A stretch of 64,000 nt of DNA from Candidatus Curtissbacteria bacterium (GTDB lineage Bacteria; Patescibacteriota; Microgenomatia; Curtissbacterales; GWA2-41-24), in the NCBI GenBank assembly GCA_030647775.1, contig JAUSJC010000010.1:200718-264717 (forward strand). The letters are read 5' to 3'. The notes beneath the pieces were generated by a model. The model was not told where the DNA came from, made no database searches, and worked only from the letters and a program-made list of their open reading frames with translations. Of the stretch, positions 3,547 to 63,891 are shown in pieces (positions within the stretch are counted from its first letter, which is position 1; every line of letters starts with the position of its first letter). Made by a program: the position numbers and the translations under genes.

Positions 3547-3566
3547 CCCTGAGTGAAATCGAAGGG
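3547..3566. repeat. Family A palindromic micro-element
   Basis: ccctgagtgaaatcgaaggg. Confidence 0.85.
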
Positions 3567-3624
3567 TCGCCGAGGCACTTCAATACCGTCCGCAAATCGA
3601 AAATTAATCTGATAAAATATACTT

Positions 3625-4245
3625 ATGAAGAAAATCATCATTCTGTTGGTTGCTTCAGTTATCATAATTTTGATCGGGCTTATTTGGTACGCCATCAATA
3701 TCTCTTTCAATCAAGTTCGGCCGGCTACTGCCGAAATTAACAAAAATATCGTCAAAGATCTATCTAAGATCGTCCGTATCCCCGAAGGGATTGCGCCGCC
3801 GATGCAGGATTTTAATCAAACCATTTATTCATGGGAAATGGAAACGCCTGCGGGAGAGGTAACAGGTATTACTTTTAAGTACACGCCATCATTTGCCAGA
3901 AAAGATGACAAAATCATCGCGACTTTAGAAATGCCCGAAAACGGTGACCCGAGTATTTTTAATAAGGTTCTTGAAGCAATTATTGTCGACGAACAGTCAC
4001 TGGCAGCTGCCCGTGATCCCCAAAAAGCGAATCTTGGTGCAAACGGGAAAAGCGGTTACAACTCGATCAAACTGGCCGTTTCGCCAAAATCCGGGCAAAC
4101 GACAAACATTACCTGGGAATTTGAAAAGAAAACCCTTTCCAAAGAATTAAATAGCTCCTATGACCAAATTAATAAAATCCCCAGTTTCGCCTTGAATTTT
4201 TTGTATGGACTACCGGGTTTTATCATTGGTTTACTAAAAGGATAA
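3625..4245 (+). CDS. Hypothetical protein with N-terminal TM anchor
   Basis: 206-aa ORF, hydrophobic N-terminus. Confidence 0.7.
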   Translation: MKKIIILLVASVIIILIGLIWYAINISFNQVRPATAEINKNIVKDLSKIVRIPEGIAPPMQDFNQTIYSWEMETPAGEVTGITFKYTPSFARKDDKIIATLEMPENGDPSIFNKVLEAIIVDEQSLAAARDPQKANLGANGKSGYNSIKLAVSPKSGQTTNITWEFEKKTLSKELNSSYDQINKIPSFALNFLYGLPGFIIGLLKG

Positions 4246-4282
4246 CCAAATTAAACTCGGCTTGAAAGAAGATTTTTGAAGT

Positions 4283-4335
4283 AGAAAAAACCCCCGGAGA
4301 CAATTCTGAAGCCAAAATTATCGTGGGGTTTTTTC
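4283..4335. terminator. Bidirectional hairpin/terminator between convergent genes
   Basis: agaaaaaaacccc ... ggggttttttct inverted repeat. Confidence 0.5.
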
Positions 4336-4425
4336 TTTTACTCGCAACCCGATTTTTCAAAAGGGTCGAAAGCAGTATCTACATTGAAAATCAACCACCG
4401 CGTCAAACGCGGTAGGCTAGTTTGA

Positions 4426-4566
4426 CTAGCCACCAATCTTGAACATGGTCGTACCGCAAACTGGGCACTTACCTTTTGAAGCTGGTTTGCCGTTTTTCAT
4501 TGTTACTTTTTGAGCATTGGGATCATCTCTCTTTGCGCGGCACTTAACACAATACATTGTAGTCAT
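4426..4566 (-). CDS. Small zinc-ribbon protein (DUF5679-like), 46 aa, not in ORF track
   Basis: MTTMYCVKCRAKRDDPNAQKVTMKNGKPASKGKCPVCGTTMFKIGG; two CxxC; strong AGGAGGTGA SD upstream. Confidence 0.85.
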   Translation of the reverse strand: MTTMYCVKCRAKRDDPNAQKVTMKNGKPASKGKCPVCGTTMFKIGG

Positions 4567-7320: not shown

Positions 7321-7373
7321 CCCTGAGCGAACGAAGTGAGTCGAAGGGCTATAGTCCTGAGCTTGTCGAAGGG
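7321..7373. repeat. Two family A micro-elements
   Basis: ccctgagcgaacgaagtgagtcgaaggg and cctgagcttgtcgaaggg. Confidence 0.85.
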
Positions 7374-7412: not shown

Positions 7413-7465
7413 TAGGCCCGCAGTTCTGAGTGAAGTCGAAGGACGAGGACCGCATGGCTTTGTAT
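7413..7465 (+). repeat. Family D leader element with nested family A, in the secD 5' UTR
   Basis: taggcccgca[gttctgagtgaagtcgaaggac]gaggaccgcatggctttgtat. Confidence 0.8.
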
Positions 7466-8835: not shown

Positions 8836-9726
8836 ATGAACATTATTAAATACAGGAATTGGTTTTTTGCTTTATCACTGGCCATTATTATTCCCGGCCT
8901 TATTGCGCTTGCCCTGTGGCACCTAAAACCCGGAATTGATTTTTCCGGAGGGACTCTTTGGGAAGTAAAAACAAACACTGCGCCCAAAAATCTTCAGGAC
9001 TTTATATCCAAAAATGGAGTAGAGGTATCACAAGTCACCAAAACAAGCCAGGGATCAATTCTTTTGCGCCTTAAAGTCACGGATGACGCAAAGATCAAAG
9101 AGATCAAAGATAAAGTATCTTCAAACATCGGCCCATTTGAAGAAGTAAGGTTAGAAACTGTCGGGCCGGTTATTTCCAAAGAGCTTACTCAAAAAGCCGC
9201 TCTTGCTGTCGGTATTGCGCTTTTAGGTATCGTGCTTTACGTAACTTGGGCTTTTAGAAAATTGGCCAAACCCGCTTCGCCAATTGCTTTTGGGGTATGT
9301 ACAATTATTGCCCTTATCCACGACATCATTGTCGTTGTCGGTATCTTTGCAATTCTTGGTCACTTTTTCGGTGTCGAAGTCGACTCGCTTTTTATTACGG
9401 CCCTTTTGACAGTTCTTGGTTTTTCCGTCCACGATACGATTGTAGTTTTTGATAGGATCCGCGAGAATTTAAGAAAGCACAGTGATTATTCTTTTGAAGA
9501 AGTTGTTAATCACTCACTCCTGCAAACCATTGGCCGTTCTCTCAACACATCATTAACCGTAGTTTTTGTTCTCCTGGCGCTTCTCCTTTTCGGCGGCGAG
9601 TCGATAAAAACTTTCGTCTTAGCGCTTCTAATCGGCATTATTTCCGGGACCTATTCCTCCATCTTCAATGCCGCCCCGCTCCTCGTCGTCTGGTCGGAGT
9701 TTATTAAAAATAAACGCAGATCCTGA
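8836..9726 (+). CDS. secF: Protein translocase subunit SecF
   Basis: GIDFSGG, GFSVHDTIVVFDRIRE, GTYSSIF. Confidence 0.97.
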   Translation: MNIIKYRNWFFALSLAIIIPGLIALALWHLKPGIDFSGGTLWEVKTNTAPKNLQDFISKNGVEVSQVTKTSQGSILLRLKVTDDAKIKEIKDKVSSNIGPFEEVRLETVGPVISKELTQKAALAVGIALLGIVLYVTWAFRKLAKPASPIAFGVCTIIALIHDIIVVVGIFAILGHFFGVEVDSLFITALLTVLGFSVHDTIVVFDRIRENLRKHSDYSFEEVVNHSLLQTIGRSLNTSLTVVFVLLALLLFGGESIKTFVLALLIGIISGTYSSIFNAAPLLVVWSEFIKNKRRS

Positions 9727-9739
9727 GTTTATCGAAGGG
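9722..9739. repeat. Family A micro-element supplying the secF stop codon
   Basis: cctgagtttatcgaaggg overlaps the TGA at 9724-9726. Confidence 0.8.
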
Positions 9740-9761: not shown

Positions 9762-11108
9762 TTATTTAAGATCAGAAAGTCTACGAGTTAGAAGGTCTTT
9801 CTTATTTTTCTTTGGGTCTTCTTGGACTTCTTCAAAAAGTTTATTCAAAATCTCTCCGACTTTTGGCCCGGGCTTCAGATTAAGCATCTTCATAACGTCA
9901 TTACCGCTAATTTTTAAATCGGCAACCGTAAACGGTTTTTTCAAAACATCCGTTATCTTTTGTCTAAAAAGTTTAAGCCGCCAAGATTCCGGCTGTTGCA
10001 GGCCGCCGCCAAGCCGGTCTCCAACCCGAAGATCCATCATATCCTCGACATACTCCAGTCCCACATTATGAATAAAACGGCGAATTGCCGCGTCCGTCTG
10101 GTTTTCGTTGACCGAAAATTGGTGCCAGCGCACCAAAAGAAATAACTTCTCCTTTTGCTCACGCGATAAATGCAGTCTATCGGCAATTTGCTTAACAATT
10201 CGCCCGCCAACAACTTCGTGATTATAAAAAGTCCGTACGCCTTCTTCCGTAACTTTGGCAACTTTTGCTTTGCCAATATCGTGAAGCATTGTCGCGAGTT
10301 TTGTAATCACGTCTTTGGACGGGCAAAACTTCAGGCTCATTACGCAGTGTGTTCCGACATCGTGAATATGATGCCTCTGCGGACTTTTTTGGGGAACGCT
10401 AAAACACTCGTCAAGCTCCGGCAAAATAACAGCAAGAATTCCGGTCTCTTTCGCCAGAAAAATTCCGTCCGCGCCATTATCACTAGCTACTATTTTAAAA
10501 AGCTCGTCCCTTATTCTCTCACCGGAAATTTTGGAGATCAGCTGCGCGTTTTTGGCGATAGACTTTTGGGTTTTTTCTTCTATCTTAAATCCCAAACCCG
10601 TTGCAAACCTTATTGCTCTTAAAAGTCGGAGTGCGTCCTCGCTAAACCGCGCGTCAGGTTCTCCGACAGTTCTAATAATTCTATCTTTAAAATCTTCAAC
10701 TCCGCCGTAAGGATCGACTGGCGTCTCATCTAGTTTACCCTGAGCGAAGCGAAGGGCTACGGCATTAATTGTAAAATCCCGCCTTGCCAGGTCTTCTTCC
10801 AAACTCTTCCCCCAGGCAACTTTTTCGGGATGACGTGAGTCTTCATATTTGCCCTCGGTTCTGTATGTGGTGATTTCGGCAATCGTCTTGCCGCTTTTGG
10901 CAATTCCCACAGTGCCAAAACGGTTGTTGTAAAAAGCTTCAGGAAATATCTTTAAAATTTTCTCGGGCGTGGCGTTGGTCGTCAAATCGAAGTCGGAAAT
11001 ATTTTTCCCAGCCAAAACATCCCTTACGCCGCCGCCTACCAAAGCTGCTTCATATCCGGCTTTTTCAATCTTATCCAGAATTTGTTTTACGTCAGTGTTA
11101 ATAGTCAT
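9762..11108 (-). CDS. cca: tRNA nucleotidyltransferase (CCA-adding family) with HD domain
   Basis: VGGGVRD, DFD, RRDFTIN, EDALRLLRAIRF, LHDIGK. Confidence 0.9.
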   Translation of the reverse strand: MTINTDVKQILDKIEKAGYEAALVGGGVRDVLAGKNISDFDLTTNATPEKILKIFPEAFYNNRFGTVGIAKSGKTIAEITTYRTEGKYEDSRHPEKVAWGKSLEEDLARRDFTINAVALRFAQGKLDETPVDPYGGVEDFKDRIIRTVGEPDARFSEDALRLLRAIRFATGLGFKIEEKTQKSIAKNAQLISKISGERIRDELFKIVASDNGADGIFLAKETGILAVILPELDECFSVPQKSPQRHHIHDVGTHCVMSLKFCPSKDVITKLATMLHDIGKAKVAKVTEEGVRTFYNHEVVGGRIVKQIADRLHLSREQKEKLFLLVRWHQFSVNENQTDAAIRRFIHNVGLEYVEDMMDLRVGDRLGGGLQQPESWRLKLFRQKITDVLKKPFTVADLKISGNDVMKMLNLKPGPKVGEILNKLFEEVQEDPKKNKKDLLTRRLSDLK

Positions 11109-11122: not shown

Positions 11123-11173
11123 GTCATGCTGAACTCGTTTCAGCATCTAGATCCCGAAACAAGTTCGGGATGA
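11123..11173. repeat. Family B (GTCAT-tagged) double-hairpin element
   Basis: gtcatgctgaactcgtttcagcatc-ta-gatcccgaaacaagttcgggatga. Confidence 0.85.
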
Positions 11174-12887: not shown

Positions 12888-12908
12888 GTTCTCGACTTCG
12901 CTCGAACA
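12888..12908. repeat. Family A variant, reverse orientation
   Basis: Reverse complement gttcgagcgaagtcgagaac; compare gttcgagcttgtcgagaac at 28944. Confidence 0.7.
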
Positions 12909-16246: not shown

Positions 16247-17569
16247 ATGTCTAAAGTCATAGATCCCAAGCGCAGTCGAGTCATCGAGACCCTGAGTTTA
16301 TCGAAGGGTCGAAGGACCACAGGTCCTGAGCGCAGTCGAAGGATTCGCGTTCGATACGCCCCTTCGCCTACAGGCATTCCGCACATCGGTAATATAAGAA
16401 CCGCCCTTTTCAATTACCTATTTGCAAAAAACCAAAATGGCGATTTTCTACTGCGCATCGAAGATACCGATCAAAACCGGTTAATACCCGAATCCGTCGA
16501 AAAAATCAAAGAAAGCCTCGAGCTCCTGGGCCTAAAGTGGGATGAAGAGGAACACCAATCAAAACGGTTGGAAATCTACAAAAAGCATTTGGACATTCTT
16601 AAGGGAAAAGATTTGGCATATGAAGATGACGGTGCCTGGCGTTTTAAAGTTGAAAAGGGCAAAACACTGCAGTGGGATGATGTCGTTCATGGACAGGTTA
16701 AATTTTCATCAGACGTTATCGAAGACTTCATCATCATAAAATCCGACGGATTTCCCACTTATCACTTTGCTTCTGTTGTAGACGATCACGATATGCAGAT
16801 TTCCCACGTTTTCCGCGGCGATGAATGGATTTCTTCAACACCAAAACACCTACTAATATACCAGGCGTTTGGATGGGAACCGCCAAAGTTTGTCCACTTG
16901 CCGCCAATTCTCGGGGCTGACCATAAAAAACTTTCCAAGCGCGAAGGCGCCAAATCGGTAATTGAATACATAGAAGAAGGATATCTTCCGGAGGCGATTG
17001 TTAACTTTTTAGCATTTCTGGGTTGGTCACCCAAAGATGATAGAGAAATTTTCAGTCTTGAGGAGCTCACTCGCGAATTTTCCCTCGACCGCATCAACAA
17101 AAACAGCCCAATTTTTAATTTGGAAAAATTAAATTGGTTCAATAGTCAGTGGCTCCGAAGACTTCCACAAAAAGAATTATCCAAAAAAATCAAAAAAGCT
17201 TTTCCAAGATATGATCCAAAAATTGTCGGGAAACTCACCCCCCTTATCCAGAAAAGGATTACAAATGTTAACGATTTTCCAAAACTTTGCAATTTCTTTT
17301 TTGAAGTGCCAAAACCTTTAGATTCGGTTGTCGAAAAAGGTGTTCTGTCAAAAGTAGCCGAGAATTTTGTTAAAGTTTCGTGGAATGCGGAAGAAATTAA
17401 AAATTCGATAGAAGATTTTGCCCAAAGTCAAAAAGTCGACAAGAAAGATTTAATAGTCAGCATAAGAAATATTGTGGCAGGCAGACCTGTTACGCCCCCG
17501 CTTTACGAGTCGTTAGAAATATTAGGTAAAGATGAAACTATTGCAAGGCTCAAAAAATATGTCAGCTAG
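16247..17569 (+). CDS. gltX: Glutamate--tRNA ligase with repeat-derived N-terminal extension
   Basis: RVRYAPSPTG.PHIGN, LRIEDTD, KLSKR. Confidence 0.95.
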   Translation: MSKVIDPKRSRVIETLSLSKGRRTTGPERSRRIRVRYAPSPTGIPHIGNIRTALFNYLFAKNQNGDFLLRIEDTDQNRLIPESVEKIKESLELLGLKWDEEEHQSKRLEIYKKHLDILKGKDLAYEDDGAWRFKVEKGKTLQWDDVVHGQVKFSSDVIEDFIIIKSDGFPTYHFASVVDDHDMQISHVFRGDEWISSTPKHLLIYQAFGWEPPKFVHLPPILGADHKKLSKREGAKSVIEYIEEGYLPEAIVNFLAFLGWSPKDDREIFSLEELTREFSLDRINKNSPIFNLEKLNWFNSQWLRRLPQKELSKKIKKAFPRYDPKIVGKLTPLIQKRITNVNDFPKLCNFFFEVPKPLDSVVEKGVLSKVAENFVKVSWNAEEIKNSIEDFAQSQKVDKKDLIVSIRNIVAGRPVTPPLYESLEILGKDETIARLKKYVS

Positions 17570-18224: not shown

Positions 18225-19379
18225 ATGAAACTTTTTAATAGTTCCGCCAAAAAAGAGGAAGCTGTTGATCTTTCAAAACCCATCGGTATCTATGTCTGCG
18301 GCGTAACCCCATACGATACAACTCACCTCGGTCACGCTTTTACATTCATAACTTACGATGTTTTGGTCCGCTATCTAAGATTTCTTGGTGCCAAAGTTGC
18401 TTATGTGCAAAATGTTACCGATATTGACGACGTCATTTTAATCAAGTCAACATCCATTGGAGTTAATTGGAAAAAACTTGGGGAAAAAGAGACTAAAAAC
18501 TACCTTGCCAATATGGATTCGTTAAATATGCTTCGTCCGGATTTTTATCCTCTTGCCACCGACCACATTACTACGATGATACGAATCATCGTAGTACTTT
18601 TAAAAAGGGGTTTCGCATACGAGAAAAATAAATCCGTATACTTCAGTATCAAGTCTTACAAAAAATTTGGCCAGCTTTCTAAATATGGTTATGACGCCAT
18701 GCTGCAAATTGCCAATGACCGCGGCAACTTCCCGCTTGACCCCGATAAAAATGACCCTCTGGATTTTGTGCTCTGGCAGGCGCAGAAACCTGGTGAACCG
18801 GCTTGGAATTCACCATGGGGAAAGGGTCGTCCCGGTTGGCATATTGAATGTTCGGCTATGTCCATAAAATATCTGGGCCCGACTGTAACAATCCATGGCG
18901 GGGGAGAGGATTTAATTTTTCCTCACCATGAATGCGAAATTGCCCAAAGTGAAAATTACACAGGGAAGCAGTTTGTAAAAATCTGGATGCACACCGCTAT
19001 GGTTTATTGTCAAAACAAAAAAATGAGCAAATCTCTTGGCAACATGATTTTTGTCCACGACCTCTTAAAAAAATATTCGGCAAACGAAATTCGCCTTTTT
19101 CTCCTAATGCACCACTGGCGCCGTTCTTGGAATTATCAGGAGTCGGATCTTAAAACTGCAGAAATTTTAGCCAAAATATTTGAGTCTCAATCTAAAGATG
19201 GGAATTTAAAAAAAGACGAGCTTAAAAAACTAATCCCGGATTTTTTCCATGCCCTGGATGATGATCTTAACACCCCAGATGCAATTACCGCCCTCGACAA
19301 CTTCGCTAAATCAAACGCGCAAAATAAAGGCTCGGTTATTAAAAATTGCTCTGAAATTCTTGGACTGCGGTTTAGCTGA
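18225..19379 (+). CDS. CysRS paralog, MshC-like cysteine ligase
   Basis: CGVTPYDTTHLGH, GRPGWHIECSAM, FPHHE, KMSKS; no C-terminal anticodon-binding domain. Confidence 0.8.
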   Translation: MKLFNSSAKKEEAVDLSKPIGIYVCGVTPYDTTHLGHAFTFITYDVLVRYLRFLGAKVAYVQNVTDIDDVILIKSTSIGVNWKKLGEKETKNYLANMDSLNMLRPDFYPLATDHITTMIRIIVVLLKRGFAYEKNKSVYFSIKSYKKFGQLSKYGYDAMLQIANDRGNFPLDPDKNDPLDFVLWQAQKPGEPAWNSPWGKGRPGWHIECSAMSIKYLGPTVTIHGGGEDLIFPHHECEIAQSENYTGKQFVKIWMHTAMVYCQNKKMSKSLGNMIFVHDLLKKYSANEIRLFLLMHHWRRSWNYQESDLKTAEILAKIFESQSKDGNLKKDELKKLIPDFFHALDDDLNTPDAITALDNFAKSNAQNKGSVIKNCSEILGLRFS

Positions 19380-19872
19380 CTATTTCGAGCTTGCGAGAAA
19401 CAAGCTTTCTTATTTTAATTTCGATAATTCTGTAGTCTGCTTTTCCGCTTGGCGAATAAACGCTAACAATATCCCCAACCCTTTTTCCAAGAAGCGCACT
19501 GCCGATTGGCGAGCTGTCGGAAATTTTCCCCTTTAAGGGATCAGCTTCTTGCGCGCTGACTATTGTAAATTGCATATTATCTTCGCCGGCATTAATTACC
19601 ACTTCGTTTCCAAAACCGACAATTTCCGCTTCCTCGGCTTGTGTTACTTCGCCAAGCCGCATCATTAGTTTTAACTCGCGGACGCGGCTGTCTATTTTTC
19701 CAAGTTCTTCTTTTGCCGCGTGGTAGCCCGCGTTTTCCGAAAGGTCTCCCTGTTCGCGCGCGGCCACAAGCCGCGTCAAAACCCCCGGCCTTCTGGCGGC
19801 AAGCCCCTCAAGTTCTTTTTTTAGGTTTTCAAAGCCTTCCGGCGTAAATTTAAAGCTCGGTAGTTTTCTCAC
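19372..19872 (-). CDS. greA: Transcription elongation factor GreA family, paralog 1
   Basis: GDLSENAGYHAAKE, SPIGSALLG. Confidence 0.9.
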   Translation of the reverse strand: MRKLPSFKFTPEGFENLKKELEGLAARRPGVLTRLVAAREQGDLSENAGYHAAKEELGKIDSRVRELKLMMRLGEVTQAEEAEIVGFGNEVVINAGEDNMQFTIVSAQEADPLKGKISDSSPIGSALLGKRVGDIVSVYSPSGKADYRIIEIKIRKLVSRKLEIVS

Positions 19873-20672: not shown

Positions 20673-20743
20673 CTGCGGGACTAGGATTCGAACCTAGATA
20701 AACGGATCCAGAATCCGTTGTCCTACCATTAGACGATCCCGCA
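20673..20743 (-). tRNA. tRNA-Gln (CTG)
   Basis: TGCGGGA/TCCCGCA acceptor stem, ACGGA-TTCTGGA-TCCGT anticodon arm, GGTTCGAATCC T-loop. Confidence 0.95.
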
Positions 20744-20746: not shown

Positions 20747-21013
20747 CTACCTACTTAATTGCTTTAAACTATTTTCAATCTTTCCTTTTAAGACTTCTCT
20801 CCCGTAACCAGATTTGTAAAACTTTTCTTGTTTAAGTGCGTCCTCTTCAGTTAAAAATGCTTCATAAAATACAAGTTTATACGGCCTATTATCTCTAGTA
20901 TATTTGCCTCCAATTCCGTCGTTATGCTCTCTAAACCTGCGCCTTAAATCATTTGTTGATCCTGTATATAATCTTTTATTCTTCAGACTTAATAAAACAT
21001 AAACGTAATACAT
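20747..21013 (-). CDS. Stand-alone GIY-YIG endonuclease, 88 aa
   Basis: MYYVYVL..LYTGSTNDLRRR..H..EKFYKSGYGR. Confidence 0.9.
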   Translation of the reverse strand: MYYVYVLLSLKNKRLYTGSTNDLRRRFREHNDGIGGKYTRDNRPYKLVFYEAFLTEEDALKQEKFYKSGYGREVLKGKIENSLKQLSR

Positions 21014-21018: not shown

Positions 21019-21083
21019 TCCGTTGTCCCTGCCTCATCGGCAGGTCGCCGAAGAGGCGACTACCATTAGACGATCCCGCAAAG
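21019..21083 (-). pseudogene. Duplicated 5' half of tRNA-Gln interrupted by two mini-palindromes
   Basis: Matches 20714-20746 apart from an insert at 21029-21059. Confidence 0.85.
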
Positions 21084-21320
21084 TTAAATCCTTCTTTTCA
21101 AATATGCTCTACCAAAACCTGTTTTTAATTGTTTTTCTCTTCATATAGCTTTTTCCTTAGACAAACACGCTTCGTAGTAAATCAAAATTAATGGAACTCT
21201 ATTTTTTGTTGAGACAACTAGTTCTTGATTGTGAGCTTTTACTCTTTTTTCTAGATTGTCAGTCCAACCTGTGTATAAATTTCCATCCGTTTTGCTTTTT
21301 AACACATAGGTAAAGTACAT
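21084..21320 (-). pseudogene. Second GIY-YIG endonuclease with an in-frame TGA
   Basis: MYFTYVLKS..LYTGWTDNL..KEKAI*REKQLKTGFGRAYLKRRI*. Confidence 0.85.
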
Positions 21321-21408
21321 ACCATTAGACCTGCCCGCAATGCTACGCTCGCCAGAAACGCTGTATCTACTGCGAGCTGGCATAGCGTTGCAGGCGGGCG
21401 ACTCCGCA
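21320..21408 (-). pseudogene. tRNA-Gln-like 5' fragment split by a 69-bp nested family C element
   Basis: Minus strand tgcggagtcg[element 21330-21398]tctaatggta. Confidence 0.75.
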
Positions 21409-32971: not shown

Positions 32972-33009
32972 CGGTCAAATAATATCATAGCCGGTCGGTT
33001 CTGTTAAAA

Positions 33010-33047
33010 TATACAGTGCCATGCGGTCCTCACAGGCTGCGGGCCTA
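33010..33047 (-). repeat. Family D element, reverse orientation
   Basis: Reverse complement taggcccgcagcctgtgaggaccgcatggcactgtata. Confidence 0.8.
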
Positions 33048-33071
33048 ATACAGTAGAGGAGGTGACTCTAT

Positions 33072-44356: not shown

Positions 44357-44407
44357 TAGACCCGCAGTCCTGAGTCGCGAAGGACGAGGATCGCATGGCA
44401 CTGTATA
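44357..44407 (+). repeat. Family D leader element with nested family A, upstream of lon
   Basis: tagacccgca[gtcctgagtcgcgaaggac]gaggatcgcatggcactgtata. Confidence 0.8.
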
Positions 44408-44450
44408 TTCGGACTAACAATTCGGATAAATTCGGGTGTAAAATAAAGAC

Positions 44451-46874
44451 GTGGCAATATTCATTGATCCGCAAAAACCCAGAATTAAAAACGAACTCCC
44501 GATAGTTCCGCTTAGGGATACTGTTGTTTTCCCGTCTTCCATGGTTCCAATTACCGTTGGTCGTCCTAAGGTTAAGCTTGGACTCGATAGTGCTTGGGCC
44601 ACCGACCACTTGGCTGTTTTTGTCGCCCAGAAAAATCCGCGCATCGAAAACCCGGCCCCGGGCGACATCTATTCCGTCGGCACCGTCGGTTTAATCCGTC
44701 GGCTTTGGAAGGTCGATAATGAATATAATCTGGCCGTCGAGGGCATCAGCCGCGTTTACCTTAAAGAATTCTCCCAAATCGATCCATATCTTGCTGTCAA
44801 AGTCGAAGAAATTCCCGAACTCACCCAAAAAACCGAGGAAGTCGAAGCGCTTTTTAGAAATATCCTGGCTAAAATCAAGAAATTCGGCGAACTAGGCGGT
44901 ACCCTCACCCTTGAATCTTCGATCCATATCTTTTCAACGGATGACCCGAACCAGCTTGTTAATATTGTCGCCGCCTCCATCGATCTTAAAACTGCCGATA
45001 AACAGCAAATTCTGGAAATGGTCGATACCAAAGCCAGGCTCGACAGGCTTTCGGAACTTTTAACGCGCGAAATCCGAATCTTAGAAATTTCCTCAAAAAT
45101 CGACACCGAAACCCAGGAAAGGGTCGGCAAAGTTACCAAAGATGCAATCCTGCGCGAGAAAATGAAATCTATCGAAAAAGAGCTGGGTGAAGATGAAGAT
45201 GGTCAGGAAATTGCCCAGTTCAGGAAAAAAATCAAAGAAGCCCAAATGCCAACCGATGTCAGGACTAAAGCCGACCGTGAGCTGATTCGTCTTGCCAAAA
45301 TGTCGTCTTATAACCCCGAATCATCCTATATCCGCACCTATTTGGAGTGGCTGGTCGACCTGCCTTGGCAGATCAAGGACAAGAAAAAATCAACCGATGT
45401 CGAGCTGGCCGCCAAAATTTTAGAGGAAGACCATTACGGTTTGCCAAAAGTTAAGGAAAGAATTTTGGAATATTTTGCCGTCCATAAGCTAGTCGGCAAA
45501 ATTAAAGGACCAATCTTGTGCTTTTACGGTCCGCCCGGCGTCGGTAAAACATCAATCGGCAAATCAATTGCCCGGGCGCTTGACCGTAAATTTATAAGGG
45601 TATCTTTAGGCGGCATCCACGATGAAGCGGAAATTCGCGGCCACAGAAGAACCTATGTTGGTGCTATGCCGGGCAGAATAGTCCAGGGTATTAAAAACGC
45701 CGGCACCAAAAACCCGGTCTTTATGCTGGACGAAATCGATAAAATCGGTGCCGATTTCCGCGGCGATCCGTCATCGGCGCTCCTGGAGGCTCTTGACCCG
45801 GAACAAAATAATTCTTTCTCCGACCATTATCTGGAAGTTGCCTACGACCTTTCCGATGTTTTGTTTATCGCAACCGCCAACATTTTGGATACTATTCCGC
45901 CGGCGCTTCGCGACAGGCTTGAGGTAATCAGTTTCCCAGGTTACACCGAAGACGAAAAATTCCACATCGCCAAGCGCTTCCTGATCCCCAAACAGCTTGA
46001 AGCCCATGGTTTAAATAAGGAGAAAGTGGAAATAACGGATAGTACCTTAAAAGACATCATTTCCCATTACACCAGGGAAGCAGGTGTTAGGGAATTGGAA
46101 AGGGAAGCGGCAGCGATCTTTAGAAAAGTAGCTAAAAAATTGGCCACAGCCAAAGTAAAGACCAAAATCGCGATTAGTCCAAAACAGCTCCATGCTTATC
46201 TTGGAGCGGCTAAATTTACAAGAGCCATTGCCGAAGAAAAGGATGAAATTGGAATGACAACCGGTCTCTCGGTAACTTCCGCCGGCGGCGAAATCCTCTT
46301 TGTTGAAGTAACACCTATGCCCGGCAAAGGCCTGTTAATTTTAACCGGCCAGCTTGGTGATGTTATGAAGGAATCGGCTCAAGCCGCACTTTCCTATGTG
46401 CGTTCCCGCGCCAAAGTTTTGGGTATTCCCGAAAACCTTTTTGCCAAAAGCGATATTCATATCCACGTTCCGGAAGGCGCCGTTCCCAAGGAAGGCCCGT
46501 CTGCCGGTATCGCCATCACCACAGCGCTTGTTTCTGCTCTTACAAAAATTCCCGTCCGCCGTGAAGTCGGCATGACCGGAGAAGTCACCCTGCGCGGCCG
46601 GGTTTTGGAAATCGGCGGCCTTAAAGAAAAAACCCTGGCAGCTCATAGGGCGGGTCTAACAACAATTATTATTCCAAAACAAAATGCCAAAGACCTGGAA
46701 GATATCCCTAAAAATGTTAAGCGCGACCTGCAGTTTATTTTGGCCGAGCACATGGACGAAGTCTTAAAAGTGGCACTGACTAAATCTCTTCCTAAAGAAA
46801 AAGCCGCGGAGTCTCCAAAGCTTCCTGTCCGTCATCCTGAACTTGTTTCAGGATCTTCCCAACCAACTAATTAA
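44451..46874 (+). CDS. lon: ATP-dependent protease La
   Basis: [30 protein letters not shown]. Confidence 0.97.
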
Positions 46875-49057: not shown

Positions 49058-49151
49058 GTCATTGCGAGCGAAGCCCCGCCTGCCGGACGGGCAGGGAAGC
49101 AATCTCAACAATTTAACAATAAGAGAGCTTATTGCTCGTAAACTCGCAATG
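49058..49151. repeat. Family B element pair with nested family C hairpin
   Basis: gtcattgcgagcgaagc[cccgcctgccggacgggcagg]gaagcaatctc ... ctcgcaatg. Confidence 0.8.
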
Positions 49152-54715: not shown

Positions 54716-56176
54716 ATGGAGTCGCTGGAGAAAATTCGTCAAACTCGCCTCGAAAAGCTGGAAAAGATTAGGAAACTTGGCATCAATCCCTTCCCTGCCA
54801 AAAGCGCCAAAAAACAAGACGTCGCCACTTGCCTCAAATCAGCAGGCAAGATTGTCCAAACTGCCGGCCGCGTCATGGCCATCCGCGGCCACGGCGGCTC
54901 AAGCTTTATGGACTTGGTCGACGAGTCCGGCAAAATCCAACTTTTTTTCTCCGCCGACAAACTATCCACAATTAACCGTCAACTTTTAACTCTTCTGGAT
55001 ACCGGTGATTTTATTCAGGTAGAGGGGAAAGTTGACAAAACTGCCGCGGGTCAACTGACAATTTTTGCCGACGGCTTTAAACTTCTCACCAAATCTATTC
55101 GCCCGGTCCCCGCAACTTTTTACGGTTTAAAGAACCCAGAAACGCGACTGCGAAAAAGATATTTGGATTTGATAGCCAACCCCGAGGTTCATGACCTTTT
55201 TGTCAAAAAAGCAAAATTTTGGACCAGTGTCAGGCAGTTTTTAATAGAGGACGGATTTTTGGAAGTAGAAACTCCGGCCCTCGAACTTATTCCCGGCGGC
55301 GCAGACGCAACCCCCTTTATCACCCACCACAATGCTTTGGATGCCGATTATTACTTAAGAATCTCGCTGGAGCTTTACCAAAAAAGGTTGCTTGTCGGCG
55401 GCTTTGAAAAAATTTTTGAAATCGGGAAAATCCTCAGAAACGAAGGCATCGATACCGAACACTTGCAAGACTATCTCCAGATGGAATTTTACTGGGCGTA
55501 TGCCGACTACGTTGCTCTCATCGATTTTGTCGAAAAATATTACCGCTTCATTGTCAAAGAAACCTTTGGGTCAACAAAAACAAAAAGCGGTGAAATCGAA
55601 TTAGATTGGGGAAAACCATGGGAGAAAGTCGATTACATCGATGCTTTTAAGGTCGAAACCGGTCTGGATCTTTCTAAAAATCCTAAAGTCGACGAGCTTT
55701 TAAAACTGGCAGACAAAGTCGGTGCCAAGCCAAACAAGAAATTAGCAGAGGGGAGACTCATTGATTTGATTTACAAAAAGACAATTCGGCCAAAACTCAT
55801 CCAGCCATCCCTCCTTATTAATCATCCGGTTGCCGTATCCCCGCTGGCCAAAAGGGATGAAAAAAATCCCAATATTGTCCAAAGGATCCAGGTTTTGGCG
55901 GCTGGCACGGAAATCGGTAATGGCTGGTCGGAACTTAATGATCCGATAGACCAAGCTCAAAGATTTGAAAAACAGCAGGAAATGAGAAAAGAAGGTGATA
56001 CAGAAGCCCAAATGTACGATCACGATTTTGTCGAAGCTTTAGAATATGGTATGCCGCCCGCAGCCGGTTTTGGACTTTCCCAAAGATTATTTGCCGTGCT
56101 CGTCGACAAACCCATCCGCGAAACAGTCTTTTTCCCAACAATAAGAGGGGAAAATGAGACCATTACACTACGATGA
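54716..56176 (+). CDS. lysS: Lysine--tRNA ligase, class II
   Basis: R.RYLDL, GGADATPF.TH, LRISLELY.K, YGMPPAAG.G. Confidence 0.97.
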   Translation: MESLEKIRQTRLEKLEKIRKLGINPFPAKSAKKQDVATCLKSAGKIVQTAGRVMAIRGHGGSSFMDLVDESGKIQLFFSADKLSTINRQLLTLLDTGDFIQVEGKVDKTAAGQLTIFADGFKLLTKSIRPVPATFYGLKNPETRLRKRYLDLIANPEVHDLFVKKAKFWTSVRQFLIEDGFLEVETPALELIPGGADATPFITHHNALDADYYLRISLELYQKRLLVGGFEKIFEIGKILRNEGIDTEHLQDYLQMEFYWAYADYVALIDFVEKYYRFIVKETFGSTKTKSGEIELDWGKPWEKVDYIDAFKVETGLDLSKNPKVDELLKLADKVGAKPNKKLAEGRLIDLIYKKTIRPKLIQPSLLINHPVAVSPLAKRDEKNPNIVQRIQVLAAGTEIGNGWSELNDPIDQAQRFEKQQEMRKEGDTEAQMYDHDFVEALEYGMPPAAGFGLSQRLFAVLVDKPIRETVFFPTIRGENETITLR

Positions 56177-56203
56177 TACGAATCATCGTAGTGGGAGTAC
56201 GAA

Positions 56204-56812: not shown

Positions 56813-56910
56813 GTCATTCTGGAGCGAAGGGACAGAATAAGCTCTCTTATTCTGGGGACGAGCGAAGTCGAAGACTCTGAGTGAAATCGAAGAGCGAGGA
56901 CACCAGAATC
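56813..56910. repeat. Nested cluster of family B and A elements upstream of serS
   Basis: gtcattctggagcgaag..; attctgg..gagcgaagtcgaag..ctgagtgaaatcgaag..ccagaatc. Confidence 0.8.
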
Positions 56911-58168: not shown

Positions 58169-58194
58169 GTCATTCTGAACTTGATTCAGAATCT
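58169..58194. repeat. Family B single hairpin
   Basis: gtcattctgaacttgattcagaatct. Confidence 0.85.
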
Positions 58195-58240
58195 TTTGGG
58201 AGCTTGACATAGATTTTTTCACATCCTAATCTAAATATTA

Positions 58241-58465: not shown

Positions 58466-61414
58466 ATGTTTGGAATATTCGAAAAATTTTTAGATTCAAA
58501 TGAAAAACAGGTTAAAAACCTTCAGCCGATTATAGATCGCGTCGCGGGAGAGTCCAAAAAAATCCAAAAGCTGACAGATGGGCAGTTAAAATCAAAAACC
58601 GCCCAGTTCAAACTCCGTCTTGAGCGGGGAGAGTCACTCAATGATATTTTGCCGGAAGCATTTGCCGTTGTCCGCGAAGCGGCAACTCGTACTTTAAATC
58701 TCCGCCATTACGATGTCCAGGTTCTTGCCGGTATTGTCCTGCATCAGGGTAAAATTGCCGAGCAAAAAACGGGTGAAGGAAAAACCCTTACCGCATCCCT
58801 CGCGCTCTATTTAAATTCCCTAACCGGCCGTGGCGTTCATCTGGCGACAGTCAACGATTATCTTGCCCGGGTTGGCTTGGGATGGATGGGTCCGATCTAC
58901 GAGGCACTGGGGGTCTCCGCCGGCTGTATTATGCAGGATGCCGCTTTTATCTATGACCAAAAATATACCGACAAAAAGCAAACCGATTGGCGTCTCCAAC
59001 ACCTTCGGCCGGTTGATAAAAAAGAAGCATATAAGGCCGATATTACTTACGGTACCAATAACGAATTTGGTTTTGATTACCTGCGTGACAATATGGTTTG
59101 GGATCTTGCCGACATGGCTCAAAGAAGCCACCACTTTGCCATTGTCGATGAAGCAGACTCTATTCTAATCGATGAAGCCCGCACCCCGCTTATTATTTCC
59201 GCTCCCCAAAACCAGGCCTCCGATAAATATTTCCAATTTGCCAAACTTGTGGGCGAACTTTCCAAAGATACCGATTATGTTATTGACGAAAAATTAAAAT
59301 CGGCAAGCTTAACCGAGCATGGTATCACCAAAGTCGAAAAGCGCTTAGGGGTCGAAAATCTATACGAAAAAGATTTCGGCACTATTCACCATATTGAACA
59401 AGCCCTTCGCGCCAGAACTCTTTTTCATAAAGATACGGATTACGTTGTTAAAGATAACGAAATTATAATTGTCGACGAGTTTACGGGCCGTCTGATGCCG
59501 GGCCGCCGCTGGTCGGAAGGTTTGCATCAGGCGATTGAAGCCAAAGAAGGGGTGAGTGTCCAGCAGGAATCGCAAACCCTAGCCACCGTTTCTTTCCAAA
59601 ATTATTTTCGCCTTTACGAAAAACTTGCCGGGATGACTGGAACGGCCGCGACCGAAGCCGAAGAATTTCACAAGATTTACAAAGTCGAAGTTATTGTCAT
59701 TCCGACAAACAAAGACATGGTCAGGAAAGACCATTCCGATATTGTCTACAAGACTGTCAAAGCAAAGTTTACAGCCGCAGCTGCCGATATCGCCGAGCAT
59801 CACCAAATCGGTCAGCCTGTTTTAATCGGTACTACTTCAATCGAGAAGAATGAATTTTTAGCCGAACTTTTAAAAAGAAAAGGCGTCCCTCATCAGATAT
59901 TAAACGCAAAGAACCACCAGCGTGAAGCCGAAATTATTTCCCAGGCCGGAAGACGCGGGTCAGTTACTCTGGCAACCAACATCGCCGGCCGCGGTGTCGA
60001 CATTATCCTTGGCGGCACTCCGCCGACCGATAGGCTGGGCAGACCAAGAACGACCGGTCCCCAGTTTAAAAAATGGCAAAAAGAACATGAAGAGGTTGTT
60101 TCTCTCGGCGGCCTTCACGTCGTCGGAACCGAAAGGCACGAGGCCAGAAGAATTGATAACCAGCTCCGTGGCCGTTCCGGCCGTCAGGGAGACCCGGGCT
60201 CAAGCCGCTTTTATGTTTCCTTGGAAGACGATATTATGCGCCTTTTTGGTGGCGACCAAATCGCCAAAATAATGACCGCCTTCAAACTCCCGGAAGATAC
60301 CCCGATTGAACACGGTATGGTGAGTAAGGCTATCGAGAATGCGCAGGTCAAAGTCGAAACCCATAACTTCGATATCCGCAAACACCTGGTCGAATACGAC
60401 GATGTCGCCAATAAACAAAGGGAAATTATCTATGGTATGCGCAAAGATGTGCTTCTGGCAGCCCAAGACAAGGAAATGGCCGCCAAGATGCGGGAAGAAG
60501 TTAAAGACAAGATCGGAAGAGAAGTTGAAAACATTGTCCTTGCCCAAACCGTAGAAGGCGCGTCGCCTGATATTGGAAAAATTCTCCAGGATTTTTCCCT
60601 CATCATTCCTTTTGACGAAACTTCCCAAAAAAAACTTTTGTCCGATGCGCCCGCCAATTCCGAAAGATTAATAGAGTTTTTAAAAGGGGTCACAAGCCAG
60701 GTTTATGAAAGCCGCGAAAAATCTCTCGGGGAAAAAGTCGCCCGCGATATCGAAAAGTTTACGACTCTTTCCGTTATCGATACCCTGTGGATTGAACATC
60801 TGGATAGTCTAGATGATCTGCGCGAAGGCATTGGCCTTCGGGCTGCCGGCCAGCGCGACCCGTTGGTTGAATATAAACAGGAAGCATTTAACCTCTTTGA
60901 AAAATTAGCCGGGTCAATCGATTACGAAATCGTCCATCGCATTTTTAAAGTCCAGGTCCGCCAGGAACCGGCCGTAGAAAAACAAGAGGAGAGAGGAATC
61001 GAAGTCCATGCTCAGCCCGAGCTGGTCAGTCAAGAGCCGGCAATTACTAGCCAGGAGCCGGCAGTCGATCCTCTAACCATGCCGGATGACGAGCTGGACC
61101 GCGAGATCGCCCGGCTCGAAAAAGAACAGGGGACTACCGGTCAACAAACGCCCGCGGAAAGCCAGTCATTCTCCAAAGACCCGAACGAGATGACCGATGA
61201 GGAACTCGACGCCGAGATCGCCAGGATGGAGGCTCTCAAAAAAGGGTCCGACCCTTCGAAACTTCAAGCATCAAGCCCTTTCTTAAAAGGGTCGGACCCT
61301 ATCAATAAGCCACTCCGGATTCAAAAAATTGGCAGAAACGATCCCTGTCCTTGTGGATCAGGACTCAAATGGAAAAAGTGCGGCTTGATTAACGCCCCCG
61401 AACATAAAGGATAA
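58466..61414 (+). CDS. secA: Preprotein translocase ATPase SecA
   Basis: TGEGKT, DEAD, QLRGRSGRQGDPG, GRNDPCPCGSG. Confidence 0.98.
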   Translation: MFGIFEKFLDSNEKQVKNLQPIIDRVAGESKKIQKLTDGQLKSKTAQFKLRLERGESLNDILPEAFAVVREAATRTLNLRHYDVQVLAGIVLHQGKIAEQKTGEGKTLTASLALYLNSLTGRGVHLATVNDYLARVGLGWMGPIYEALGVSAGCIMQDAAFIYDQKYTDKKQTDWRLQHLRPVDKKEAYKADITYGTNNEFGFDYLRDNMVWDLADMAQRSHHFAIVDEADSILIDEARTPLIISAPQNQASDKYFQFAKLVGELSKDTDYVIDEKLKSASLTEHGITKVEKRLGVENLYEKDFGTIHHIEQALRARTLFHKDTDYVVKDNEIIIVDEFTGRLMPGRRWSEGLHQAIEAKEGVSVQQESQTLATVSFQNYFRLYEKLAGMTGTAATEAEEFHKIYKVEVIVIPTNKDMVRKDHSDIVYKTVKAKFTAAAADIAEHHQIGQPVLIGTTSIEKNEFLAELLKRKGVPHQILNAKNHQREAEIISQAGRRGSVTLATNIAGRGVDIILGGTPPTDRLGRPRTTGPQFKKWQKEHEEVVSLGGLHVVGTERHEARRIDNQLRGRSGRQGDPGSSRFYVSLEDDIMRLFGGDQIAKIMTAFKLPEDTPIEHGMVSKAIENAQVKVETHNFDIRKHLVEYDDVANKQREIIYGMRKDVLLAAQDKEMAAKMREEVKDKIGREVENIVLAQTVEGASPDIGKILQDFSLIIPFDETSQKKLLSDAPANSERLIEFLKGVTSQVYESREKSLGEKVARDIEKFTTLSVIDTLWIEHLDSLDDLREGIGLRAAGQRDPLVEYKQEAFNLFEKLAGSIDYEIVHRIFKVQVRQEPAVEKQEERGIEVHAQPELVSQEPAITSQEPAVDPLTMPDDELDREIARLEKEQGTTGQQTPAESQSFSKDPNEMTDEELDAEIARMEALKKGSDPSKLQASSPFLKGSDPINKPLRIQKIGRNDPCPCGSGLKWKKCGLINAPEHKG

Positions 61415-61452
61415 ACCCCTAAGTTTTTGCTACAATTGCTCAAAGCAACCGG

Positions 61453-63000
61453 ATGAAAGAAAAAATTGTAATAACTCTCCTCGTGTTTTCGGCAGCCATA
61501 ATCAGGTTCCTACTAATTGCGCGTGATTCGGTTCCTTTTGCCTACGACATGGGTCGCGATCTCCTGTGGGCTAAGGATATAAGCTTCTATCACACCCCAA
61601 CGCTAATCGGTCCGGCCGCCAGCATTTGGGGAGTCTATTTCCAGCCGTTTTGGTATTACTTTCTATCGATCCCGCTTCTTTTGACAGGAGGCAACCCGCT
61701 TTCGGCGGTCTTCGCTACTGCCGCTATGGTTTTGTTAACCGGGTTTTTGGCCTTTATCTTATTTAAAAACTACCTCCCGAAGATCTATATTTTTACTCTT
61801 GCGGTTTTGCTTCTTTTTTCATCCAATTTAATCAATATCTCAACGTTTGCCTTCCATGCCAATCTTTTGCCCCTTTTAACTTTACTGACAACTTATTTTA
61901 TTTTCGCGTCAATTGTTAAAAATCCCCTGAACTTCTCACTCGCGGCGTTTTTTGTCAGCTTGATGTTTAGTGCCGATCCGGCACCTGCAGTGGCCTTTAC
62001 GATAGTTCTGGTTTTTTTCTTCTTTTTCCTTAAACTTTACAAATCGCGGGAAGCTATAAAAACTGCTGTTACTTCAGCCGTTTTTTACCTTATTCCGTTT
62101 ATTCCCCAAATTATCTTTGAGCTTCGAAATAACTTTATCCAAACGAAATCCCTGTTTGCCTACTTTAGCGGAAATAACCCATCCCTTTCGGGCCAACTGC
62201 CGCTTTTAGGAAGAATCCCAAACCGCCTGTCCGTCTATTTTGATTTTGTAAAAGCAAACTTCGCCCCTCAAAATATTTTGACGCTTACTCTAATAATTTT
62301 TACTATTTATGGCCTCTACAAATTTTCAAAATCAATCAGCAATCGACAATCAACGATCAACAATGCACTTCATACTCTATTTAGAATTAACCTTTATATT
62401 TTTATTATCACTTTTCTCATAAATACTTTTTTGGTAAATGTGGAAATAAAGAACTGGTATCTTTCGGGGCAAGCGGTCAATGCCGCTTTCTTAATTGTAT
62501 TTGCTCTTGTTGGAATAAGATCCAAAATCTTAACTTTACTTTTTTTAACAATTTTTCTGCTTGCAAATCTTTTGCCGGTTACCAGTTCCCATAAAATAGC
62601 GCGAGCGGCGGCAGATCCGGCCACACTTTCAAATCAGCTTAAAGTTATCGATACCATTTACGCAGATAAGACAGATCCTTTCTCCGTTTATGTTTATACC
62701 CCTTCGATCTATGATCTGAATTACCAGCACCTTTTCTGGTGGCAAGGGATCAAAAAAGGAAAAGGATTACCTGCCGACTTTGCCTATTTGCCGCAAGAGC
62801 CGGATTATGTCAGAAATAAATCAAAATACTTCGTAAGTTTGGGGTCATCAAACACGATTTATCTAATCATCGAAAATGCTCAAGAGAACCAATTTTATAC
62901 AAGTGCCGATTGGCAAACTAACTTTAACGAATATAAAATTGTCTGGGAGAAAAATATAAATGGGGCAATAAGAGTCCAAAAAAAGGTTAAGCAAAATTGA
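61453..63000 (+). CDS. GT-C (PMT/ArnT-like) membrane glycosyltransferase
   Basis: F.YD.GRD, LIGP, P.WYY; many TMs. Confidence 0.75.
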   Translation: MKEKIVITLLVFSAAIIRFLLIARDSVPFAYDMGRDLLWAKDISFYHTPTLIGPAASIWGVYFQPFWYYFLSIPLLLTGGNPLSAVFATAAMVLLTGFLAFILFKNYLPKIYIFTLAVLLLFSSNLINISTFAFHANLLPLLTLLTTYFIFASIVKNPLNFSLAAFFVSLMFSADPAPAVAFTIVLVFFFFFLKLYKSREAIKTAVTSAVFYLIPFIPQIIFELRNNFIQTKSLFAYFSGNNPSLSGQLPLLGRIPNRLSVYFDFVKANFAPQNILTLTLIIFTIYGLYKFSKSISNRQSTINNALHTLFRINLYIFIITFLINTFLVNVEIKNWYLSGQAVNAAFLIVFALVGIRSKILTLLFLTIFLLANLLPVTSSHKIARAAADPATLSNQLKVIDTIYADKTDPFSVYVYTPSIYDLNYQHLFWWQGIKKGKGLPADFAYLPQEPDYVRNKSKYFVSLGSSNTIYLIIENAQENQFYTSADWQTNFNEYKIVWEKNINGAIRVQKKVKQN

Positions 63001-63033
63001 CTTTTAGGCTCCTTTGCCTAATACTAGGTTCAT

Positions 63034-63729
63034 ATGTCTTTCTTGCCCCGAAAAGGTTTTAGTCACTTAGTCATCTTAATTCTTGTCGCGATTTTAGGTA
63101 CAGTCTTCTTTCTAAGCCCAATAAAAAAATACCTATATATGGCATATCAAAATGCCGGTATGGCTGTCGGCATCAATCTAAATAATATTGCTACCGCAAG
63201 CTATGTCAATTTCATCAAATCCCAAAGCGGCCAGTATGAAAACGCCAGTACCGCAATTTGGCTAAACCAAAAAATCGCTTACAATAATTTCTTGGCCGAA
63301 GGCCCTGAGCGAAGTCGAAGGGCCGACGCGAACGTTTTGGGTAATCAATCTCCCGCTGATCCCAATAAATGGATTGATATTAATTTATCTGAACAAAGAC
63401 TTTATATGAAGCAAGGTGCCAGCACCGTTGCTAGTTTTTTAGTTTCTACCGGTAAATGGGCGCCGACCCCGACAGGCACTTTTGCCATCTGGACAAAGTT
63501 AAGATATACCACAATGGCAGGTGGAAACCAGGCGCTCGGTACTTACTATAACCTTCCAAATGTCCCCTACGTAATGTACTTTTACCAGGGTTATGGAATG
63601 CACGGGGCTTATTGGCATAACAACTTTGGCCAGCGCATGAGTCACGGCTGTGTCAACATGAGGCCGGAAGAAGCCGGCATTGTCTTCAACTGGGCAGATG
63701 TCGGCACCCGCGTAGTTGTCCACGATTAA
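63034..63729 (+). CDS. L,D-transpeptidase (YkuD family)
   Basis: I.INLSEQRL, VSTG...TP.G, HGAYW..SHGCVN. Confidence 0.93.
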   Translation: MSFLPRKGFSHLVILILVAILGTVFFLSPIKKYLYMAYQNAGMAVGINLNNIATASYVNFIKSQSGQYENASTAIWLNQKIAYNNFLAEGPERSRRADANVLGNQSPADPNKWIDINLSEQRLYMKQGASTVASFLVSTGKWAPTPTGTFAIWTKLRYTTMAGGNQALGTYYNLPNVPYVMYFYQGYGMHGAYWHNNFGQRMSHGCVNMRPEEAGIVFNWADVGTRVVVHD

Positions 63730-63856
63730 ATTTTAGATAACCCTGAGTATACCGTCAGCTTTTCAGCTGAGGCGACCTGCTGATATGTCTTCCTCTCCGT
63801 TGGAGAACGACATATATCAGATTGTCCGGAGGACAAGGCTGATATATAATCCCCCT

Positions 63857-63891
63857 TAGATCCCGTTCACGGGATCGCATGGCACTGTATA
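63857..63891 (+). repeat. Family D leader element between a TATAAT box and the next ATG
   Basis: tagatcccgttcacgggatcgcatggcactgtata. Confidence 0.8.

Follow-up and report, generated by a model that had tools for sequence, protein, structure and literature searches.

The stretch of DNA analysed here, called the window, comprises 64,000 nucleotides of a contig of Candidatus Curtissbacteria bacterium (JAUSJC010000010.1, positions 200,718 to 264,717; G000:C7:200718-264717 in our numbering), an ultra-small groundwater bacterium whose 965-kb genome (G000, 94% complete) was found in a groundwater sequencing run. Scattered over the window are short palindromic repeats of several families, for which strict patterns match 40 sites, compared with 0 to 3 in each of 20 windows simulated by an order-5 Markov model and none when the window is reversed, a ratio flattered by the tuning of the patterns on G000 itself. 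About 20 of the sites lie within 13 open reading frames (ORFs), many copies being identical to the letter. The repeats are dispersed, gene-less hairpin elements, located in and between genes, that break no frame; a preliminary description of the window, which had counted about 30 copies (at least 12 of them inside ORFs with the frame kept) and had called them non-autonomous, was on the low side in its numbers and right as to their nature. We argue below, with a probability of roughly 0.6, that most families are recognition hairpins of small single-domain GIY-YIG nucleases and would have spread through cutting of single-stranded DNA (ssDNA) followed by host repair. The elements and associated features of the window are the following (strand given where assigned).

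3548..3565, + strand: family A hairpin, intergenic.
7322..7372, + strand: two tandem family A units, the first with a long loop, intergenic.
7413..7456, + strand: D/E element (TAG-hairpin-CGCA tail), its loop carrying an A unit.
9722..9738, + strand: family A copy; its TGA terminates ORF 8836-9726.
10739..10755, + strand: family A copy, antisense in the CCA-adding enzyme (ALRFAQG).
11123..11173: inverted pair of B1 arms with no gene between them; arms match those of the GIY-YIG gene G000:C7:478800-479081.
12889..12908, - strand: family A2 hairpin, intergenic.
16263..16342, + strand: A-type units in the GltX N-terminus (SRVIETLSLSKG, GPERSRR).
18570..18595: family H perfect palindrome in CysRS, length unchanged.
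19383..19406, + strand: family A3 copy in the C-terminal extension of GreA.
20673..20743, - strand: intact tRNA-Gln(CTG).
20747..21013, - strand: intact 88-aa single-domain GIY-YIG gene, with a 24-nt direct repeat of the tRNA-Gln 5' end on both sides.
21028..21059: 32-nt C-type insertion in a tRNA-Gln 5' fragment.
21084..21320, - strand: second small GIY-YIG gene, its frame containing a TGA at 21141-21143.
21330..21398: 69-nt C3 element (36-nt unit plus 33-nt nested hairpin) in a second tRNA-Gln 5' fragment.
22931..22961, + strand: family A3 copy at the 5' end of the 5-formyltetrahydrofolate cyclo-ligase gene (start codon uncertain).
26126..26146: 21-nt C1 element in NrdJ (LPRGKAG), +7 residues relative to empty alleles.
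27075..27092, + strand: family A unit encoding DPERSRR in NrdJ, at predicted loop 394-407 (low confidence).
27432..27449, + strand: family A unit encoding GPERSRR in NrdJ, +9 residues, at predicted loop 519-527 (low confidence).
28443..28469, + strand: 27-nt C-like hairpin in an NrdJ linker predicted to be disordered.
28572..28598, + strand: second copy of this 27-nt C-like hairpin (local duplication).
28847..28961, + strand: intergenic cluster of a B3-type arm, a B2 arm and an A2 hairpin.
31743..31759, + strand: family A unit at the N-terminus of ORF 31714; also in G001, there with a further nested insert.
32751..32828: 78-nt inverted B2 pair in PduO, +13 residues relative to G006.
33008..33050, - strand: D/E element, intergenic.
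40370..40405: C3 element of 36 nt in the linker of CopA, with a gain of only one residue relative to G009.
43091..43150: 60-nt inverted B1 pair extending the TIGR01906-like protein (tail of 53 residues, 36 in G001).
44357..44408, + strand: D/E element upstream of lon, an A unit nested within it.
46831..46857, + strand: single B1 arm in the Lon tail (RHPELVSGS), 31 residues long against 29-30.
49058..49150: B2 arm with a clean 21-nt C1 insertion, then an A3-type copy, intergenic.
56167..56192: family H palindrome providing the LysRS stop codon.
56813..56893, + strand: nested intergenic cluster (B arm, A3 tail, A units).
58169..58195, + strand: single B1 arm, intergenic.
61244..61299: two family G palindromes in the SecA linker (GSDP).
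63304..63321, + strand: family A unit in L,D-transpeptidase (GPERSRR), +9 residues relative to G001.
63877..63889, + strand: D tail at the window end.

Genome-wide, about 290 repeat clusters are present in G000, and the families stand above the reversed, complement and Markov sequences that served as controls: family A with 54 copies (3 to 7 in controls), C1 with 63 (4 to 19), and B1, B2 and D with 69, 35 and 21, respectively (0 in controls for each). The four families A to D initially distinguished were recovered and are joined by others, namely A2, A3, F, G, H, M and heptamer arrays, with frequent nesting in each other's loops, and D proved to be the tail of the longer D/E element. Two further patterns were dropped: a loose C pattern, with 320 matches against 61 to 215 in controls, and a short C5 pattern, which matched ordinary codons and was taken out of the genome counts. 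Across 41 genomes, B1 occurs in 20, A in 35 and C1 in 34, the controls being near zero; in G001, a comparison genome of the same genus (607 kb used, median protein identity of 73% to G000), only 4 B1 copies are found. Folding of the DNA predicts stable hairpins for B1, C3 and H (z of -3 to -7) and gives no such support for A, A2, B2, C1 and D/E, where the model may not score tandem G-A pairs. A search of Rfam returned two tRNAs only. Heptamer arrays occur between genes (window 46875-46900) and in the CCA loop of several relatives (L384-L403), where others carry hairpins, and a 21-nt unit akin to the A3 tail is repeated in tandem, in frame, within ORFs at G000:C7:318807-318956, C7:399476-399575 and C9:3455-3564. 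At window 63774-63846, there are TATATCAG-type motif pairs (family I), which recur upstream of genes genome-wide.

The small GIY-YIG genes are the best candidates for mobilisers of these hairpins. G000 encodes ten of them, besides UvrC, two lying between inverted B1 arms and two between A2 arms; nucleases paired with A2 lie at C6:64666 and C10:7949. Both full cassettes (arm, nuclease gene, inverted arm) and gene-less pairs of arms occur in this genome, and the window pair at 11123-11173 corresponds to the arms of an Ssn-like gene at C7:478800-479081, the right arm being identical and the left differing only in the loop. In a tree built by a quick method from 109 small GIY-YIG proteins of G000 and its relatives, a subset of all matches, strict B patterns flank 10 of the 14 members of one clade and none of the other 95 proteins, and A2 flanks 5 of 5 members of a second clade and 1 of the 104 others. 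B1 arms flank 36 of 80 relatives of the B-paired nuclease, belonging to many phyla, and the published SRM pattern is found at 16 of the same 80 loci. The B-paired clade is present in 8 of 9 genomes with at least five B1 copies and in 11 of the 32 remaining genomes, and, over the 41 genomes, B1 copies track the clade (rho = 0.60, with kin, which are not independent, taken as separate points). The B-paired nuclease has no NCBIfam or PDB match above cut-off, the SsnA sequence lying outside that comparison.

The preliminary description had pointed to the two GIY-YIG genes of the window as possible mobilisers, a proposal that holds for the type of gene and less for these two members, since they fall in the tRNA-linked half of the tree, outside the B-flanked clade, and the frame of one contains a stop codon. 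A tRNA-Gln 5' fragment, split by a C element, precedes each of the two; more widely, 20 of 100 small GIY-YIG genes lie between direct repeats of at least 12 nt, mostly tRNA ends, compared with 3 in a shuffled control. Nine of the ten small GIY-YIG genes of G000 are on the G-rich strand, compared with 41% of all genes (p = 0.002). It had also been noted that the window contains no transposase or RAYT, which does not extend to the genome: G000 has three Y1_Tnp genes, and the family G palindrome found in SecA brackets a RAYT-type one at C7:481266. In this gene (C7:481080-481727), the GGGTC(C/G)GACCC palindrome occurs both around and inside the reading frame, and the other two Y1 genes have short palindromes of their own. 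Arms of A, B, C or D bracket none of the three. Family G likely depends on a RAYT-type gene instead of a GIY-YIG nuclease.

All ten host proteins named in the preliminary description contain the reported peptides in open frames. Eight score above the NCBIfam cut-off for the stated family, with the TIGR01906-like protein just below it; L,D-transpeptidase is above the Pfam YkuD cut-off, and ORF 31714 belongs to no family. Further in-frame copies were found in CysRS and at the ends of GreA and LysRS. Genome-wide, looser patterns place 133 of the roughly 290 clusters in 105 genes and strict patterns give 120 in-ORF sites, counts that are approximate because genes were called with our own hexamer script (957 ORFs, 88% coding). 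Alignment of these 120 sites with G001 left 63 that could be anchored (33 lack an orthologue and 24 an anchor), of which 43 gain at least 4 residues, 13 are of equal length, a few of these possibly being chance matches, and 7 are longer in G001. Isolated C1 gains amount to +7 residues in 5 of 5 cases. A metagenome scan for a close relative gave a best match of 65% identity, hence no empty sites at strain level.

Net gains among the named hosts are found in GltX, NrdJ, PduO, the TIGR01906-like protein and L,D-transpeptidase. Many of 29 GltX relatives start with M-x-x-VRVRY, with no unit, and others bear one, two or three A units. An alignment of NrdJ from 18 of 23 loci shows three loops that lack an insert in most or some relatives, others having different repeats there; on the AlphaFold model, the inserts lie in a loop between helices, in two loops of low confidence and in a linker, also of low confidence, and the alignment-invariant cysteines and the N-x-C-x-E motif are intact. 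One NrdJ homologue, L128 (G027:C1), has a 1309-aa open frame with a gap in the match, possibly an intein. The PduO loop carries other repeats at the same place in G001 and G003. The copies in CCA, CopA, Lon and SecA add between 0 and +4 residues relative to repeat-free orthologues, and the earlier claim of peptides written into host proteins is to be qualified for these four: as there is no net gain, sequence was either replaced by the element or lost in a later compensating deletion. The CCA copy, with no length gain over G015, is common to G001 and G004 and sits in a loop that receives many different repeats. The 26-nt perfect palindrome of family H lies at the same codons of both CysRS paralogues, leaving their length unchanged, and provides the stop codon of three genes (window 18570-18595 and 56167-56192; G000:C6:66629, C7:172976, 271073 and 337886), and a different perfect palindrome of the same layout is found at the same place in G001 CysRS. 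The genes around CopA (window 33072-42460), which we take to encode a metal-responsive repressor-like protein, a DUF1573-like protein, two CcdA-like proteins and a redoxin, look like a copper/redox island.

Because selection alone keeps the frame in intact genes, the proposal that element lengths are generally multiples of three (3n) was assessed on non-coding copies. These are 3n for C1 (21 nt), M (33 nt) and C3 (36 nt, or 69 nt when nested) and not for D/E (+28, +35, +36) and F (+10), and the commonest B1 pair, 8 of 9 copies of which lie outside genes, measures 52 nt. Spans of B pairs are 3n in 10 of 18 in-gene and 8 of 39 intergenic cases. The 3n length is intrinsic to some families only; otherwise, it reflects selection. 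The share of copies inside genes (26 of 34 for C1, 26 of 51 for A, 31 of 63 for B2, 25 of 94 for B1 and 2 of 21 for D, in a genome that is 88% coding) declines with stops and with lengths that are not 3n, C1 being open in six frames; family D hardly ever lies within a gene. A single element can be read in five frames and in both senses. No gene broken by a repeat was found among 476 G001 ORFs and 448 G000 proteins, which contain 5 and 8 frame-change junctions, respectively; one junction is near a D/E element, which is, however, upstream of the called start. Stop-interrupted rows of this search were discarded, being mostly spurious antisense ORFs.

The ends of the elements are sharp. Contigs of other organisms diverge from the window's B1 pair exactly at 11122 and 11173, C1 inserts cleanly, and identical units of 21, 33 and 78 nt stand at unrelated sites with clean ends. 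A duplication of 3 to 4 nt is present in only 3 of 69 B pairs, in a test that covered repeats directly at the ends, and the target-site duplication that is the hallmark of DDE-type miniature inverted-repeat transposable elements is not seen. Copies often lie in the loop of another hairpin. Some copies add sequence, and others stand in place of a stretch of similar length.

The orientation of families A and D/E follows GC skew, and that of A does not follow transcription. In the window, 11 of 11 A matches are on the + strand; in G000, A is on the C-rich strand in 44 of 50 cases regardless of gene direction (21 of 24 when intergenic; in genes of the other strand, 5 of 5 are antisense), as are D (17 of 21), E (23 of 26) and A3 (9 of 9). 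Within genes of the G-rich strand, 35 of 42 A copies are antisense. The bias is weaker in relatives (18 of 25 in G001, 43 of 63 in G012 and 32 of 49 in G017, after exclusion of 2 and 11 ambiguous copies and of 4 on contigs outside the analysis). Local gene direction was rejected as an explanation of the A strand (38 of 54), GC skew giving the better fit. The skew of contig C7 (527 kb) is itself unusual, since at four-fold sites it keeps one sign throughout, even across dnaA (C7:31867-33219), and might represent an inverted or a unidirectional skew; on C7, the operons for ribosomal proteins and rpoBC lie on the C-rich strand, and most genes of C3, C6, C8 and C11 are on the G-rich strand. A literature search, with most subscription papers outside it, found no paper on such a skew.

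The pairing, the layouts and the biases are observed; cleavage and movement are inferred, and for these the following steps are proposed: (i) the paired nuclease would cut ssDNA beside its hairpin, by analogy with SsnA, which is reported to bind its hairpin only as ssDNA and to cut just upstream (PMC11893778); (ii) the released piece of ssDNA bearing the hairpin would be joined in elsewhere by host repair; (iii) integration might occur via short homology at gaps of the replication fork or during DNA uptake, ComEC and DprA being encoded in G000; and (iv) within genes, a copy would survive only if it preserves the frame and falls in a loop, a linker or a terminus. Release as ssDNA and pasting by host repair would explain the missing duplications, the nesting in hairpin tips, the equal-length replacements and the strand bias. 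The inserted peptides are likely tolerated passengers. A bolder version, which we put forward tentatively and would not bet on at even odds, is that GIY-YIG nucleases mobilise an undescribed class of ssDNA transposons, each clade moving its own hairpin or tRNA-end cassette at the fork without strand transfer or duplication, and that in the candidate phyla radiation (CPR) derivatives of 17 to 80 nt wrote peptides into about a tenth of genes, stop-free 21-nt families being favoured by a genome that is 90% coding.

Several observations weigh against the nuclease reading. Movement of a hairpin was seen in none of the analyses, and the earlier word "active" is not borne out: three sequencing runs reveal no polymorphism at any insert (only one of them, X1, covers the inserts, the organism being absent from X2 and X3), and several sites are common to G000 and G001. 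We know of no strand-transfer chemistry for a GIY-YIG nuclease. For the two commonest in-gene families, pairing with nucleases is weak, A flanking 12 of 32 members of its group and 10 of 77 others and C 8 of 58 and 1 of 51, in groups drawn by hand, and the tree is a quick version on 87 columns. The expected correlation between copy number and GIY-YIG genes exists and is not specific to the clade, as B1 also tracks the counts of non-Ssn GIY-YIG genes (rho = 0.51) and A those of Ssn genes (0.47); five genomes have B1 with no Ssn-like gene detected, and four show the reverse. The published SRM pattern is not enriched, with 6 matches in G000, 3 to 6 in controls and 0 in the window. In G000, B1, B2, A2 and C1 show no strand bias, and A arms next to nuclease genes mostly point with the gene, which, given the preference of these genes for the G-rich strand, is opposite to the dispersed A copies.

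The main rival holds that Y1 transposases of the RAYT type or phage recombinases spread the hairpins, the GIY-YIG genes riding along or restricting incoming ssDNA as SsnA does in Neisseria. The Y1 gene bracketed by family G gives it a foothold, Y1 transposases have no DDE signature and prefer the lagging-strand template, which would yield a strand bias (PMC6006769), and what Chenal et al. demonstrate is restriction, not mobility (PMC11893778); we nevertheless consider it rather unlikely, as no Y1 gene of G000 stands between A, B, C or D arms, the pairing of B and A2 with GIY-YIG clades is tight and crosses phyla, and Di Nocera et al. could link no transposase to CGTC repeats (PMC3733652). That no dedicated enzyme is involved, and that the repeats arose and spread through slippage, template switching and gene conversion from taken-up DNA, to which the fragility of hairpins contributed, appears less probable still. 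The 13 anchored sites without length change (chance matches aside), the tandem A units and heptamer arrays and the different palindromes at the same CysRS codons of G000 and G001 would suit such processes, which fit poorly with identical units at unrelated sites with clean ends, with hairpin families that pair with nuclease clades and with a B1 copy number of 69 in one genome and 4 in 607 kb of its congener.

Selection for function, be it as regulatory hairpins, operators or useful peptides, is very improbable as the reason why the repeats are kept, even with many copies at gene ends or providing stop codons, since one element is read in any of five frames, the loops concerned are empty or hold unrelated inserts in relatives and the orientation of A tracks skew instead of transcription. 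Finally, the notion that the inserts are assembly artefacts or chance matches can be regarded as refuted in substance and retains a negligible probability. The sole run containing this DNA, X1, may be the source sample, so that its contigs may not be independent; these were, however, assembled separately, and, at about 35x, they span the inserts of CCA, GltX and CysRS and three of those in NrdJ without a single difference, while the same families recur in 20 to 35 of the 41 genomes with controls near zero.

The closest known system is Ssn/SRM, in which an approximately 95-aa single-domain GIY-YIG gene is bracketed by GTC-tagged oriented hairpins that are also dispersed (PMC11893778). Single-domain genes of this size are found here at C7:478800-479081 and C6:70008-70280, and genome-dispersed hairpins stand on both sides of such genes in G000. 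Unlike in Ssn/SRM, B1 and B2 do not match the SRM pattern as published, additional GIY-YIG clades are paired with tRNA ends or with hairpins of other kinds, and the in-gene share is 27 to 76% for A, B and C, compared with 2% reported for NTS (PMC11893778). Chenal et al. remark on a layout like that of insertion sequences (IS); Patescibacteria do not appear in their text, and the 13 of 14 supplements covered by a word search contain one Saccharimonas row, without SRM or ssnA (PMC11893778). Family B also resembles the CGTC class of repetitive extragenic palindromes (REPs) in its (C/T)GTC tag, its stem of 8 to 9 bp and loop of 4 to 5 nt (8 bp and 5 nt in CGTC REPs), its inverted dimers, intragenic copies, nesting in other palindromes and lack of a transposase, and differs in a tail of TCT or similar instead of CCA; the CGTC passages contain neither a nuclease link nor a strand bias (PMC3733652). 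Families A, C, D, G and H have no such tag. REP/RAYT and IS200/IS605 systems are likewise hairpin-guided and ssDNA-dependent, with a replication-strand preference (PMC6006769), and a repeat that brackets a Y1 gene is found here for family G only; families A to D lack the GTAG tag and pair with GIY-YIG, not HUH, genes.

Rickettsia palindromic elements (RPEs) occur as in-frame fusions with unrelated housekeeping genes in a reduced genome, measure about 150 bp and encode a conserved peptide, as reviewed (PMC10969869); the present elements have 17 to 80 nt, are read in several frames and in part replace sequence. In-frame insertion into unrelated genes whose orthologues are empty is what the 43 of 63 anchored sites display. 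Five inserts of 24 to 34 aa, which are short queries, gave 0 matches in NCBIfam, a library that presumably includes RPE models. In-frame palindromes (PMC10969869), intragenic CGTC REPs (PMC3733652) and Ssn/SRM pairs, including the nuclease-hairpin link for a B-like type (PMC11893778), are already published. What is new here is the match between a gene-less B pair and the arms of a nuclease gene, the pairing of clade and hairpin, extending to the A2 clade, and the skew orientation of family A. Our literature search, outside which lay most subscription papers and the supplements of Di Nocera et al., found no paper on such repeats in CPR bacteria, on hairpin pairing of other GIY-YIG clades, on their strand bias or on mobility driven by GIY-YIG nucleases.

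To conclude, how palindromes of the RPE and CGTC types move has been a question since 2000, and Chenal et al. only raise the idea (PMC11893778); matched full and empty cassettes, clade-hairpin pairs and strand bias now make it testable. In CPR proteins, peptides like PERSRR, LPAGRQ and RHPELVSGS should be read as repeat-derived. The findings point to ssDNA nucleases with new specificities beyond the described Ssn set, and to a route by which gene-dense genomes acquire new loop sequence.

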